From assembly GCA_963712165.1 (NCBI GenBank), contig CAVQGY010000005.1, positions 123,165-187,164 of the forward strand: 64,000 nt of DNA. The letters run 5' to 3'. The notes under the pieces are model-generated. The model did no database searches and was not told where the DNA came from. It was given only the letters and a program-made list of their open reading frames with translations. The stretch is from an uncultured Chloroflexia bacterium (lineage in GTDB: Bacteria; Chloroflexota; Anaerolineae; Anaerolineales; UBA11858). The position numbers and the translations under genes are program-made. This document shows, piece by piece, positions 3,237-7,256 of the stretch (positions within the stretch are counted from its first letter, which is position 1; each line of letters opens with the position of its first letter).

Positions 3237-4898
3237 ATGACCGATCTGTGGCACAGCCTGCTTAAATCAGAATACAGTTACCTGAAAATCGTGGCCGAAA
3301 AATGGGGGTTCAATTTCACGGCGCCCGATACCCGGGAGGGGATCGATCTGGTGGCTGATACCTTGCTGAAAAGTGATCTCTTATCAGGGATCTCCCAGAC
3401 CCTGGACCCTCCGGAGCGGGAGCTGCTGATCTGGCTGGATGATCAGGGAGGAAAGATCCCCTGGGATCACATCACTCGAAAATATGGCCAGCTACGGGAA
3501 ATGGGGGCAGGGCGACTGGAACGGGAAAGGCCGGACCGGGATCCTGTATCCCCCCTGGAAAGTCTTTGGTACCGGGCTTTGATCGCCAGGGGTTTTTTCG
3601 AGACCGAGACCGGCCCGCAGGAATTTGGTTATCTGGCTGATGACCTGCGTGAAAAGGTCATGCCGATCTTGAACCCGAACCGCGCTACCTCCCCGAAGGA
3701 GTCATTTATCTGTCGAGTGGCGGCTCCTCGCGAAAGAGGGGAGATCTTGCCCGATCCTGGCTTCATTCTTGATCAGATTTGCTCCCTGCTGGCTGGGATC
3801 CGCATTGCTCAGGACCCTTCTCCACACCTGCCGGGTCTAACGGAACCTGAAAAGGGTTTCTACCAAACCCTGGCAGCTGCGGCGGGTCTTCTCAATAACA
3901 GCGGGAGTACAGCTCCGGATGCTATACGGGATTTTCTGGATCTGGCTGACCCTGAAGCCTTCTTAACCATCTGGACTGCTTGGCTGGGCGATGAGATGGC
4001 CCCTGAGCTTTATTTGCTGCCTGATCTTCAGGTAGAAGGAGAGCCGCCCCTGGAGGGTTCACGGATCAGGATGCAGCTGCTTACCTTCCTGGGAGAGCTT
4101 CCACCTGGTGAATGGTGGAGTATCGAGTCCTTTGTAACCCAGGTCAAAGAACGCCAACCGGATATTTTAAGGGCAGGCGGGGAATATGAATCCTGGTTCA
4201 TCAAACGAAGATCGGCTGAGGAATATTTAACCGGGTTTGAGCATTGGGATGAGATCGAAGGCGCTTTACTGCGCTTCTTTCTCACTGGCCCTCTTCGCTG
4301 GCTCGGTATTACTGTGTTGGGTGCTCCGGAAGAAGAGGTACCTCCGCTGGCCTTTCAGCTGACTCCCTTGTTTTACGAATTAATGGCGGGTCGATCCCCC
4401 ACCTTGAAGACAGCTGAACCGGATCTTGTTCAGCTGCGCTCGCAGGGGGAGATACGCATGACGGTGGATGTGCCTCGCAAAGCCCGCTACCAGATTGCCC
4501 GGTTCTGTGATTGGTACCCTGTCAAGGCAGATGCTTATCAATACCGCTTGTCGCCGGGATCATTGGTCCGGGCAGAGGGGCAGGGATTGCGAGTACCTCA
4601 TTTGCTGTCATTGTTGAAAAACCACACGGAAGCCATTCCCCCTAATATTCTGGCAGCCCTGGAACGCTGGGAAAAGAGCGGTTCCCAGGCTGCCATCGAG
4701 CCGCGGACAGTATTGCGCCTCGGTTCACCGGCAATTCTCAAAGCTTTAAAAAGATCCCGAGCCAGCCACTATATCCTGGAGCAAATAGGTCCTACAGTGG
4801 TGATCATCAAACCGGGCAGTGAATCCAAAATCTCTCAAGCTTTGATGGAGTTGGGATTCTTTGTGCAGCTCGAAGGTCAGGACGCTTCCCAGACTTGA
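3237..4898 (+). CDS. hypothetical 553-aa protein; the C-terminal ~60 aa resemble a helicase-associated (XPB N-terminal-like) module
   Basis: Uninterrupted 553-codon ORF starting 10 nt after the kinase gene. The tail ...LGSPAILKALKRSRASHYILEQIGPTVVIIKPGSESKISQALMELGFFVQLE gives only a weak resemblance, recalled from memory. Confidence 0.6.
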   Translation: MTDLWHSLLKSEYSYLKIVAEKWGFNFTAPDTREGIDLVADTLLKSDLLSGISQTLDPPERELLIWLDDQGGKIPWDHITRKYGQLREMGAGRLERERPDRDPVSPLESLWYRALIARGFFETETGPQEFGYLADDLREKVMPILNPNRATSPKESFICRVAAPRERGEILPDPGFILDQICSLLAGIRIAQDPSPHLPGLTEPEKGFYQTLAAAAGLLNNSGSTAPDAIRDFLDLADPEAFLTIWTAWLGDEMAPELYLLPDLQVEGEPPLEGSRIRMQLLTFLGELPPGEWWSIESFVTQVKERQPDILRAGGEYESWFIKRRSAEEYLTGFEHWDEIEGALLRFFLTGPLRWLGITVLGAPEEEVPPLAFQLTPLFYELMAGRSPTLKTAEPDLVQLRSQGEIRMTVDVPRKARYQIARFCDWYPVKADAYQYRLSPGSLVRAEGQGLRVPHLLSLLKNHTEAIPPNILAALERWEKSGSQAAIEPRTVLRLGSPAILKALKRSRASHYILEQIGPTVVIIKPGSESKISQALMELGFFVQLEGQDASQT

Positions 4899-5599
4899 TA
4901 TAGTCCCAGATTTCCCCCTTCGCCATCCGAATCAAATGTTTCAATGATCTTAAACCCGCTCTCCTCCGCCAGCTGGAGGAGTTCTTCGCTGTCATAGAGA
5001 TGCACATATCGAGTTCCACTCCCACCTCTCTGCCAATCCAGAAGGTAATCGCCCTTATCCACCTGATCATCCCGGATGCCGACAGTATGCCAGGGGAGGA
5101 TCTTTTTTCTCAAGCGTTCACTCTTGATGAACTGCCAGACGGAGAGGTAGAGAATGCCATCATCAGCCAGGGCACTCCTGATGTTCTGACATAACCTGGT
5201 CCGGATCTCGAGGCTGGGGATATGGTGAAGGGTCGCAAAGCAGCAGATCACATCATAGGAGGCCAGAGGTAGGAGATCAGCCCAGCTGGGAGCTGTCAGA
5301 TCGAGCTCCAGAAACCCTGCCTGGATCCCTTCAGGTTTATCGCCGTCAGCCCATTCAAGCAATCCCAGACTGAAATCCGCTCCCAGGTAACTACCTTTAA
5401 ATCCGTTCTCAGCTAGCTGTAAAAGGACCTTGCCGTTCCCACAGCCCAGGTCCAGCAGCGAGCTTTCGGGTGGGATCCGTTCCAGGATCTTAAGCACACC
5501 CATCTGCAGCCTGCCGCGGGTCTCAGAGAAATCCGTGGCGAAGCTTTGGTAAAATTGGTGATTGAGGTTAATGATCTTTTGGGCGACTTCTGGCTGCAT
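4877..5599 (-). CDS. class I SAM-dependent methyltransferase, Trm9/ALKBH8-methyltransferase-like
   Basis: FSETR followed by LLDLGCGNGK (SAM motif I), then LHHIP...R, LYLSVW, DYLLDW and RYVHLYDSEEL. Start set to ATG 5599, because the track start at 5680 would overlap the divergent Elp3 gene. Confidence 0.8.
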   Translation of the reverse strand: MQPEVAQKIINLNHQFYQSFATDFSETRGRLQMGVLKILERIPPESSLLDLGCGNGKVLLQLAENGFKGSYLGADFSLGLLEWADGDKPEGIQAGFLELDLTAPSWADLLPLASYDVICCFATLHHIPSLEIRTRLCQNIRSALADDGILYLSVWQFIKSERLRKKILPWHTVGIRDDQVDKGDYLLDWQRGGSGTRYVHLYDSEELLQLAEESGFKIIETFDSDGEGGNLGLYQVWEAS

Positions 5600-5648
5600 G
5601 CTTCTATTATACGCCAGGGCAAAGATCTTTTCCTCTGAGGGATTGATT

Positions 5649-7256
5649 ATGACTGAAAACAGGAGCGGGAGTAAATCCAATCAGGACCAGTTCTTGGAAG
5701 CAGAGATCAAGCTGGCATCCTTGACATTGGATGAGATCGAATCTGGCGTGGAGGTTTTTAAAGCTATCAGGCGTCATCCCCTGCCAGGAGGAGTTGGGTT
5801 CCTCAGCAAACATACTCTGGTGACAGTCTATCGGGACCAGGTTGCGAGAGGACAACGCGTCGAAGACCAAACCCTGTTGAGTAAGATCCGCTTGAAGCCA
5901 ACCCGAACATTGTCTGGAGTGACCACGGTCACCGTACTCACCAAGCCTTTTCCCTGTCCGGGAGAATGTATATTCTGTCCTGATTATGAGGAAATGCCAG
6001 TCAGCTATCTGCCTGATGAGCCGGGTGCCATGCGGGCCTTATTCCACGCCTATGACCCTTATACTCAGGTTGTCTCGCGGATTGAGGCCCTGCATGAGAT
6101 TGGCCACTCGACTGAAAAGATCGAATTACTCGTCCTGGGAGGGTCTTGGACTGCTTATGACCGGGAGTACCAGACCTGGTTCATCAAACGCTGTTTTGAT
6201 GCCATGAACGGCCAGGAGTCCTCTTCTCTGGCTGAAGCGCAGGCTTTGAATGAGACTGCTACTCATAAGAACGTAGGTCTGGTCCTGGAAACCCGGCCGG
6301 ATTTGATCACACCTGGTGAGCTTGCCAGGATGAGAATATTGGGGGTAACCAAGGTTCAGATGGGAGTGCAGAGTCTGGACGACCATATCCTAAGCCTCAA
6401 CCGACGTGGGCATACTGTAAAGCAGGCCCAAGATGGTGTGGGCCTGCTGCGGGCAGGCGGGTTTAAGATCGTGCTTCACTGGATGCCCAACTTATTGGGT
6501 GCCACACAAGAGTCTGACAGGGAGGATTTCAAACGTCTCTGGGAGGATCTTTCACCGGATGAGATCAAGATCTACCCGACTCAGCTCCTTGCGGATACTG
6601 GCCTGTATCAGATCTGGAAGCGAGGTGAGTATCACCCTTATACAACCGAGGATCTGATCCAGCTCATCGCGGATATCAAATTAGGAATCCCCCGCTACTG
6701 CCGGGTGAACCGGGTCATCCGTGATATCCCTTCCGGAAATGTGGTAGAGGGAAATAAAAGGACCAGCCTCCGGCAGGACGTTCAGTTGGAACTGTCGCGG
6801 CGAGGGAAAGCCTGTAATTGCATCCGCTGCCGGGAAGTAAAGGGACAGGAAATCGAAGTGGAGAGTTTAAGCTTCAATGACCTGGAATATACCAGTAATG
6901 GCTGCAGGGAGCATTTCTTATCCTTTGATACTCCGGATGACCACCTGGCTGGATTTGCCCGTCTGAGTTTGCCCGGGCCGGGAGCAGCGGATCCGGGTAT
7001 CGAAGAACTCAGAGGAGCGGCCTTGATCAGGGAAGTTCATGTCTATGGGGAATCCCTGCCAGTGGGTTCGGAGAAGGATGGTGCAACCCAACATTCAGGT
7101 CTGGGGACTGCTCTGCTTGAGGACGCTGAAGGCATCGCCTTTGAGAATGGTTATCAGAAGATAGCTGTGATCTCTGCGGTAGGAACCCGCGGTTATTACC
7201 TGGAGCGAGGCTACGAGCGGGGGGAGTTATATTTAATTAAGGAGCTTGGCGTGTAG
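5649..7256 (+). CDS. elp3: Elp3-type radical SAM / GNAT tRNA uridine(34) modification enzyme
   Basis: Radical-SAM [8 protein letters not shown] (Cx3Cx2C) within [18 protein letters not shown]. C-terminal GNAT [42 protein letters not shown]. Start set to ATG 5649. Confidence 0.88.
   Translation: [535 protein letters not shown]

Follow-up and report, generated by a model that had tools for sequence, protein, structure and literature searches.

A divergent gene pair encoding Elp3 and a Trm9-like methyltransferase as a candidate bacterial module for tRNA wobble-uridine modification

In the textbook account, bacteria use MnmE and MnmG to build the C5-substituted uridines collectively written xm5U at the tRNA wobble position (U34), and the Elp3/Trm9 route to 5-methoxycarbonylmethyluridine (mcm5U) is ascribed to eukaryotes and some archaea. 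Here we describe a gene pair in a 64,000-nucleotide stretch of DNA from an uncultured Chloroflexia bacterium (contig CAVQGY010000005.1, positions 123,165 to 187,164; the window in what follows), in which a gene for a homolog of Elongator subunit 3 (Elp3) and a gene for a Trm9-like, S-adenosylmethionine (SAM)-dependent methyltransferase lie back to back. We interpret the two as a putative two-gene module for tRNA wobble-uridine modification, which in bacteria would correspond to the Elp3-to-Trm9 pathway of eukaryotes and archaea.

The eukaryotic system, in which Elongator precedes Trm9-Trm112 or ALKBH8-TRMT112, shares with the window pair its two catalytic families, the order in which these are inferred to act and the Elp3 architecture, and the Trm9 residues R29, D72, H115, H116, W145, W168 and R241 are all kept in the window methyltransferase. 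It differs from the window in that here Elp1, Elp2 and Elp4-6 are missing, no Trm112 gene is linked and the genes are divergent neighbors, while at the protein level Y243 of yeast Trm9 is replaced by valine and the overall identity to Trm9 of Yarrowia lipolytica is low (28 bits). Archaeal Elp3 acts together with Trm9-Trm112 and, as in the window, stands alone without other Elongator subunits; clustering of the Elp3 and Trm9 genes was noted in 2008 for Sulfolobus solfataricus (PMC2584109), and Haloferax volcanii Trm9 (HVO_1032) makes mcm5U with Trm112 (PMC6144793). The Haloferax enzyme requires Trm112, whereas the window pair has no linked Trm112 gene and resides in a bacterial host. As for the chemistry, archaeal Elp3 has been demonstrated to form 5-carboxymethyluridine at the wobble position (cm5U34) from acetyl-CoA by radical-SAM catalysis, and Dehalococcoides Elp3 to hydrolyze acetyl-CoA when triggered by tRNA (PMC6367351, PMC7663514); Trm9-type enzymes then methyl-esterify cm5U34 to mcm5U34 (PMC4678810, PMC6144793). 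The Dehalococcoides mccartyi protein (PDB 5l7j) is the closest solved structure to the window Elp3 and likewise a stand-alone protein from a member of the Chloroflexota, although the window Elp3 is longer at its N-terminus by about 80 residues, a stretch that aligns with the N-terminal part of the family model and of archaeal and eukaryotic Elp3.

Two bacterial systems act at the same nucleotide. MnmE/MnmG, followed by MnmC or MnmL/MnmM, produces 5-carboxymethylaminomethyl- and 5-methylaminomethyluridine (cmnm5U, mnm5U) and shares with the proposed module both the target position U34 and the purpose of tuning wobble decoding, but its enzymes and chemistry are unrelated (GTPase, flavin adenine dinucleotide and folate versus radical SAM and acetyl-CoA). 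CmoA/CmoB/CmoM, which converts uridine 5-oxyacetic acid (cmo5U) to its methyl ester (mcmo5U), likewise ends with SAM-dependent esterification of a U34 carboxylate by a class I methyltransferase, but on another side chain and after other upstream enzymes, and the window protein has no specific similarity to CmoM. A 2017 review stated that no bacterial genes similar to Trm112-dependent methyltransferases are detectable, and a 2026 paper describes Elp3 as present in "numerous bacteria". In full-text literature searches we came across no account of an Elp3-Trm9 pair in bacteria, and a genetics paper on Saccharibacteria (PMC10633639) makes no mention, supplements included, of Elp3, MnmE or MnmG. 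Thus the pathway in eukaryotes and archaea and the occurrence of Elp3 in bacteria are known already, and the pair in bacteria appears to be new, in apparent contradiction to the review statements.

The locus is organized as follows.

4877..5599, minus strand: methyltransferase gene, from ATG 5599 to the stop codon at 4877, 240 residues; class I, SAM-dependent, Trm9-like.
5600..5648, no strand: divergent intergenic region, 49 bp separating both start codons.
5649..7256, plus strand: elp3, starting at ATG 5649, 535 residues; radical-SAM/GNAT protein, predicted tRNA U34 carboxymethylating enzyme.

This arrangement had been proposed by a model that saw only the letters and their open reading frames (the sequence-only reading), and it held on inspection: both frames lie at the positions claimed and in divergent orientation, the gap given as about 50 bp measures 49 bp between the start codons, and every motif that had been quoted was located at exact coordinates in the checked translation. 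The list of open reading frames also contains longer versions of both genes that begin at upstream TTG codons, at 5680 for the methyltransferase. We placed the methyltransferase start at ATG 5599 because its homologs are 240 residues long and because a conserved TATAAT sequence ends 6 nt before this codon (see below); Elp3 homologs have 535-542 residues.

Membership of the 5649-7256 product in the Elp3 family is not in doubt, its matches lying far outside what chance would give. The NCBIfam model TIGR01211 (ELP3) matches at 496.1 bits against a cut-off of 350 (E 1e-148), aligning Elp3 residues 71-533 with model positions 46-522 of 522. The best PDB match is 5l7j (E 1.5e-114), followed by the Elp3 structures of Methanocaldococcus, mouse or human, and yeast, with full-length alignment. 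Pfam detects Radical_SAM (44 bits) and Radical_SAM_C (67 bits), and Acetyltransf_1 on its own stays below its cut-off (17 bits versus 20.7). Four elements define the architecture:

5955..5978, plus strand: radical-SAM cluster motif CPGECIFC (C103, C107, C110), translation checked.
6813..6830, plus strand: CNCIRC, the cysteines of the linker, which constitute the zinc-site motif in Elp3 of bacteria and archaea; aligned with CRCIRC of 5l7j, translation checked.
6927..7247, plus strand: C-terminal GNAT (KAT) domain, aligned end to end with 5l7j (through residue 533) and with TIGR01211.
7089..7106, plus strand: acetyl-CoA motif QHSGLG, with Q481, H482, G484 and G486 invariant.

When 15 diverse Elp3 sequences from bacteria are aligned, with identities down to 40%, the cysteines of CPGECIFC and CNCIRC and the QHSGLG motif are all invariant, in line with the reported conservation of the three linker cysteines in bacterial and archaeal Elp3 (PMC6367351). 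The complete radical-SAM plus GNAT architecture claimed from the letters is thus borne out by a family-model match above cut-off, with the cluster cysteines and QHSGLG in place.

The linkage of the two genes is strongly conserved across genomes. A survey led by the methyltransferase, in which the family alignment was searched against one genome per species and Elp3 was located by tblastn with the window protein, returned 80 loci, of which 75 were informative and 5 lay at a contig edge. Elp3 sits directly upstream of and divergent from the methyltransferase in 54 of the 75 informative loci; in 12 more it lies about 0.5-2 kb upstream on the opposite strand, in a single locus (L084) it shares the strand of the methyltransferase at a distance of about 5.6 kb, and 8 loci have no Elp3 within the flank. 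The gene is therefore adjacent or nearby in 67/75, and start-to-start gaps that range from tens of bp to a few hundred recur in the related loci. Going by record labels, linked pairs occur in Chloroflexota (42/45 informative loci), Patescibacteria (13/15) and Acidobacteriota (4/5), and likewise in Fermentibacteria, a Myxococcales bin, bins labeled Gammaproteobacteria and unclassified bacteria, with the caveat that not all bin labels are trustworthy. A reverse survey led by Elp3, covering the 80 closest metagenomic Elp3 loci, found the methyltransferase upstream and divergent in 64 of the 67 that were informative. The conserved adjacency that the sequence-only reading had left to be checked is therefore seen from both genes and in several phyla. 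Flanking genes are fully replaced between loci, for instance between L002 and the window, and all-against-all clustering of open reading frames from 83 loci identified the methyltransferase and Elp3 as the only genes conserved across loci; other large clusters, considered as a possible third partner, proved to be shadow frames inside the two genes themselves. Between the two proteins, pairwise distances are correlated (r = 0.945, a value reached by 0/999 permutations), which fits co-inheritance, with shared species phylogeny contributing.

One locus with a Nitrosomonadaceae label (L007, CAXMRF010000023.1) encodes an Elp3 75% and a methyltransferase 59% identical to those of the window, and is probably mis-binned because these identities resemble those of Anaerolineales loci. 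Where gaps of 0.8-1.9 kb were inspected, they correspond to one inserted gene, CysH in six Anaerolineales and a short-chain dehydrogenase/reductase (SDR) in four Acidobacteriota. The cysH genes lie on the Elp3 strand, all minus in their loci (L012 5213-5971, L021 5126-5968, L030 1879-2691, L037 2103-2846, L038 5219-5971 and L053 about 4353-5000); those of L037 and L038 match the phosphoadenylyl-sulfate reductase equivalog model at 252-261 bits, and the others were assigned by similarity of their reading frames. The inserted gene had been considered as a candidate thiolase and was rejected as an ordinary CysH equivalog. Judged by length, similar gaps (0.6-0.9 kb) occur in 17 metagenome loci. 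In Thermoanaerobaculia (Acidobacteriota), a generic SDR gene lies between the pair, upstream of the methyltransferase and on its strand (L055 5200-5985, L062 about 4606-5811, L070 2817-3728, L079 about 4945-5964; plus strand), and Elp3 is longer, at 594-651 residues where the full frame was read. A viral collection contained 326 contigs with Elp3 relatives of 32-41% identity, mostly giant-virus assemblies. Among 80 of these viral contigs (L170-L249), L191 alone has a neighboring Trm9 gene (4197-4721, minus strand; Elp3 at 5001-6719, plus strand); the encoded protein belongs to the eukaryotic type and shares 33% identity with Yarrowia Trm9, and the gene is divergent from Elp3 and about 280 bp upstream of it.

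General protein libraries see the methyltransferase as a generic class I enzyme. Pfam returns only domains of this fold, and no NCBIfam model reaches its cut-off, the best being CpaM (37.5 bits versus 180), with UbiG at 27.7 bits (cut-off 103) and UbiE, BioC and TehB similarly far below theirs. No entry named CmoM appears among the NCBIfam matches or the PDB sequence matches listed for the protein. Assignment to another characterized family such as CmoM or UbiE, which had been named as the outcome that would speak against a Trm9-type enzyme, is thus disfavored: every model of a characterized bacterial family stays below cut-off, and no match bears the CmoM name. The best PDB sequence match is Yarrowia lipolytica Trm9 (5cm2_Z; 28.3 bits, E 1.1e-5), with a narrow lead over the runner-up (24.9 bits) and with an alignment that extends into the C-terminal RY.HLY segment. 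An AlphaFold model built with 37 homologs adopts a Rossmann-type fold with high confidence (predicted local distance difference test, 91.5; predicted template-modeling score, 0.90).

The family around this protein provides a firmer bridge. It comprises 1,218 representatives at 50% identity (E <= 1e-30), and in local phmmer comparisons with the Yarrowia Trm9 fragment its patescibacterial and archaeal members score 45-60 bits (45-58 for patescibacterial members adjacent to Elp3), the close relatives of the window protein about 19-26 bits. A saccharibacterial member encoded directly beside Elp3 (L064) matches 5cm2_Z at 74 bits (E 1.2e-19; next PDB entry, 50 bits), in an alignment that runs from the N-terminal TR...PW motif to the C-terminus. 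The window methyltransferase is in turn 27-34% identical over its full length to the patescibacterial and archaeal members; it is thus related along its whole length to proteins that match Trm9, and the family therefore forms a continuum that reaches canonical Trm9. Automatic annotation by the Joint Genome Institute names several members "tRNA (uracil-5-)-methyltransferase TRM9" and others quinol methylases. Archaeal relatives of the window protein were found in L074 and L083; a search from an archaeal relative returned Thermoplasmatota proteins only, and in the Thermoplasmatota relatives examined Elp3 is not adjacent to the methyltransferase. In three representatives (P0246, P0247, P0273), the methyltransferase domain is interrupted in frame behind its second strand by a DUF559 (Vsr-like endonuclease) domain, perhaps a mobile insertion, and another representative (P0261, 429 residues) has a C-terminal GNAT acetyltransferase fusion.

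The functional argument rests on active-site residues. For Trm9, Létoquart et al. reported that the substitutions R29A, D72A, H116A, W145A, W168A, R241A, Y243A and N271A abolish or strongly lower activity, H116A being inactive and Y243A retaining about 10%, and that H115 and Y18 likewise line the active site of the yeast enzyme (PMC4678810). Comparison of the window protein, and of 85 members of its family taken from related loci, with yeast and Yarrowia Trm9 gave the following correspondences (counts refer to the 85 members).

Y17: yeast Y18; present in 84/85.
5516..5530, minus strand: FSETR motif, in which R28 corresponds to yeast R29, proposed to position the cm5U carboxylate; 85/85.
5432..5455, minus strand: SAM-binding motif I, LDLGCGNG.
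5375-5377, minus strand: acidic residue D75, yeast D72; 84/85.
5222..5227, minus strand: histidine dyad H125/H126, yeast H115/H116 and Yarrowia H126/H127; 83/85 and 84/85.
W155: yeast W145, Yarrowia W156; 84/85.
W189: yeast W168, Yarrowia W179; Trp in 80/85 and Phe in 4.
5000..5011, minus strand: RYVH motif (R197, Y198, V199, H200), yeast R241-Y242-Y243-His; R197 (R241) in 83/85, Y198 (Y242) in 81/85 and H200 (the following His) in 82/85.

The R28 region is anchored by alignment of RTR in L064 with NTR in Yarrowia Trm9, and the distance from the FSxTR arginine to the motif I aspartate, which had been described as short and similar, amounts to 22 residues in the window protein and likewise in Yarrowia Trm9. 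Six of the eight mutationally critical residues are kept (R29, D72, H116, W145, W168, R241), one differs and one is ambiguous. The Trm9/ALKBH8-type landmarks named in the sequence-only reading (FSxTR, motif I, the histidine pair, the tryptophans and RY.H) are accordingly present, and the experimentally mapped active-site residues are mostly retained. As the counterparts of R29, H115, H116, W145 and R241, which are proposed to hold the carboxylate and the uracil, are near-invariant, we argue for the same substrate and chemistry, and the earlier interpretation of the 4877-5599 product as a putative Trm9-type methyltransferase is supported.

These observations suggest the following pathway. In a first step, predicted from strong homology, Elp3 would bind a U34-containing tRNA, its radical-SAM domain would cleave SAM to generate a 5'-deoxyadenosyl radical that activates the acetyl group of acetyl-CoA bound by the GNAT domain, and a carboxymethyl group would be attached to C5 of U34 to give cm5U34. 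In a second step, suggested by the conserved active-site residues together with gene linkage, the methyltransferase would use SAM to methyl-esterify the carboxylate, yielding mcm5U34; the carboxylate would be positioned by R28 and H126, and the bases would be stacked upon by W155 and W189. Should a thiolase act as well, the product may be converted to a 2-thio derivative. For the methyltransferase of Chloroflexota we predict a leaderless mRNA with its -10 box inside the divergent spacer, 49 bp long in the window. We assign a probability of roughly 0.7 to the proposal that Elp3 makes cm5U34 and the methyltransferase esterifies it, such that the pair produces (m)cm5U34. By extension, a tRNA modification that has yet to be demonstrated in a bacterium is probably present in many of them. 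The proposal provides a concrete and cheaply testable hypothesis, namely that mcm5U exists in bacteria; if true, it would offer a minimal two-protein system, possibly without Trm112, for studying Elongator-type chemistry, and the pair is relevant to how wobble-uridine pathways arose in evolution and spread horizontally, the genome-reduced Patescibacteria included.

Several points weigh against this assignment. The similarity of the window methyltransferase itself to Trm9, at 28 bits, is weak. A fold search of its model against the PDB ranks Trm9 fourth, albeit with the top identity and target TM-score, and does not discriminate because class I methyltransferases all score alike; the family profile likewise ranks Trm9 fifth, behind phosphoethanolamine methyltransferases among others, because generic SAM-binding cores score alike, with full-length alignment obtained only for Trm9 and 3sm3. 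Within the active site, yeast Y243 corresponds to V199 of the window protein, a position that varies in the family (Val 41, Cys 13, Tyr 13, Ala 10), and the counterpart of N271, a residue proposed to read the uracil, could not be placed, the C-terminal hairpin differing in length. N230 is a candidate for the latter and is unconserved (Asn 28, Arg 24, Asp 9); many members have an asparagine directly before the last strand, in a region of ambiguous alignment. Known Trm9 enzymes require Trm112, and none is linked to the methyltransferase in the window or in the 85 related loci. Finally, according to a 2020 review, direct evidence of 5-carboxymethyluridine (xcm5U) derivatives in bacteria is lacking (PMC7663514), and the Dehalococcoides Elp3 has been reported in the literature to be weakly active in vitro.

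The Trm112 question was approached from several sides. Clustering of reading frames from the 83 loci revealed no Trm112 conserved with the pair, ten small reading frames of the window gave no Trm112p match, and Trm112-type zinc knuckles are absent from the window and related loci in a regular-expression scan that is only approximate and hence weak. A 62-residue frame overlapping the end of the methyltransferase gene in archaeal relatives was examined as a Trm112 candidate and rejected, being cysteine-free, apparently a membrane peptide and without a Pfam match. In these searches, the earlier remark that no Trm112-like gene is visible nearby extends from the window to every related locus. MnmE and MnmG are not among the ten largest otherwise unannotated reading frames of the window. 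A more ambitious version of the proposal, in which a self-contained, Trm112-independent Elp3/Trm9 module would install mcm5U34 (perhaps mcm5s2U34, its 2-thio form) in many bacteria, specifically most Anaerolineae-like Chloroflexota, many Patescibacteria and some Acidobacteriota, and would in some lineages replace MnmE/MnmG, is one that we put forward tentatively and, taken as a joint claim, consider rather doubtful.

The alternative that survives best is that the methyltransferase does work with Elp3, but methylates a different atom within the U34 side chain or base, or else a neighboring nucleotide, so that the product is an xm5U derivative specific to bacteria. The variable Y243 counterpart and the unalignable N271 counterpart leave room for such a reaction, as do the extra segment after strand 3 and the C-terminal hairpin, longer than that of Trm9, which distinguish the Chloroflexota members, and the SDR gene between the pair in Acidobacteriota could hint at further chemistry. 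With the counterparts of R29, H115, H116, W145 and R241 near-invariant, however, and with patescibacterial members that are plainly Trm9-like, we regard a different reaction as unlikely. It is much less probable still that the pair does not act on tRNA U34 at all, with Elp3 serving as a protein acetyltransferase and the methyltransferase modifying a protein or another RNA. Elp3 was once called a histone acetyltransferase, a name that persists in some PDB entries, and the tRNA activity of these particular organisms is predicted from sequence; yet acetyl-CoA hydrolysis by bacterial, archaeal and eukaryotic Elp3 is triggered by tRNA alone and not by histone or tubulin peptides or other nucleic acids (PMC6367351), and the methyltransferase keeps the residues with which Trm9 binds tRNA and cm5U. 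That the methyltransferase is an unrelated small-molecule or lipid enzyme of the UbiE/UbiG kind, next to Elp3 by accident, as the quinol methylase names of some source records, the weak UbiG, UbiE and BioC matches and the merely generic fold seen by general libraries might suggest, is the least probable option of all, given that those matches are far below cut-off (UbiG, 28 bits versus 103) and that the adjacency outlasts complete turnover of the flanks, across phyla and in both search directions.

Returning to the proposed cm5U34-to-mcm5U34 module, two expression signals can be placed in the spacer.

5606..5611, minus strand: TATAAT, the -10 box of the methyltransferase gene, with its end 6 nt from the ATG at 5599.
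5637..5641, plus strand: GAGGG, a Shine-Dalgarno-like element read from the sequence, located 7 nt upstream of the start codon of Elp3.

Of 51 Chloroflexota loci, 41 have an exact TATAAT that ends 6-8 nt ahead of the methyltransferase start codon, 32 of them at a distance of exactly 6 nt, against a background frequency of 3e-4 per nt; the element occupies the same position in L001, L002, L005-L011 and others, and was not seen at that position in loci of other phyla. Such spacing implies that the Chloroflexota methyltransferase mRNA would be leaderless, starting at or next to the ATG. A generic promoter and terminator scan of the window returned counts at chance level and did not report this box. 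The shared divergent control region postulated earlier consequently stands as geometry, and the regulatory element demonstrated within it is the conserved methyltransferase -10 box only.

The surroundings of the pair in the window are as follows. A convergent gene for a 553-residue protein (3237-4898, plus strand) overlaps the 3' end of the methyltransferase gene by 22 bp; its product has weak, sub-threshold similarity to Helicase_C_3 and to the XPB N-terminal region, and it is kept in 7 syntenic loci. On the 3' side of Elp3, a conserved housekeeping block (7642-13402, minus strand) includes glpX, cdsA and uppS, identified by Pfam in the window or in L001, followed by frr, pyrH, tsf and probably rpsB by synteny with L001. 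Further genes encode CcmF (17456-19480), UvrB (42908-44950), SecG (46175-46399) and a P-type ATPase (48267-51083). At 39551-41011, the plus strand carries a gene for an RtcB RNA ligase (Pfam RtcB, 548 bits). The sole tRNA gene of the window, at 57119-57192 on the minus strand, encodes tRNA-Pro(UGG), a U34 tRNA.

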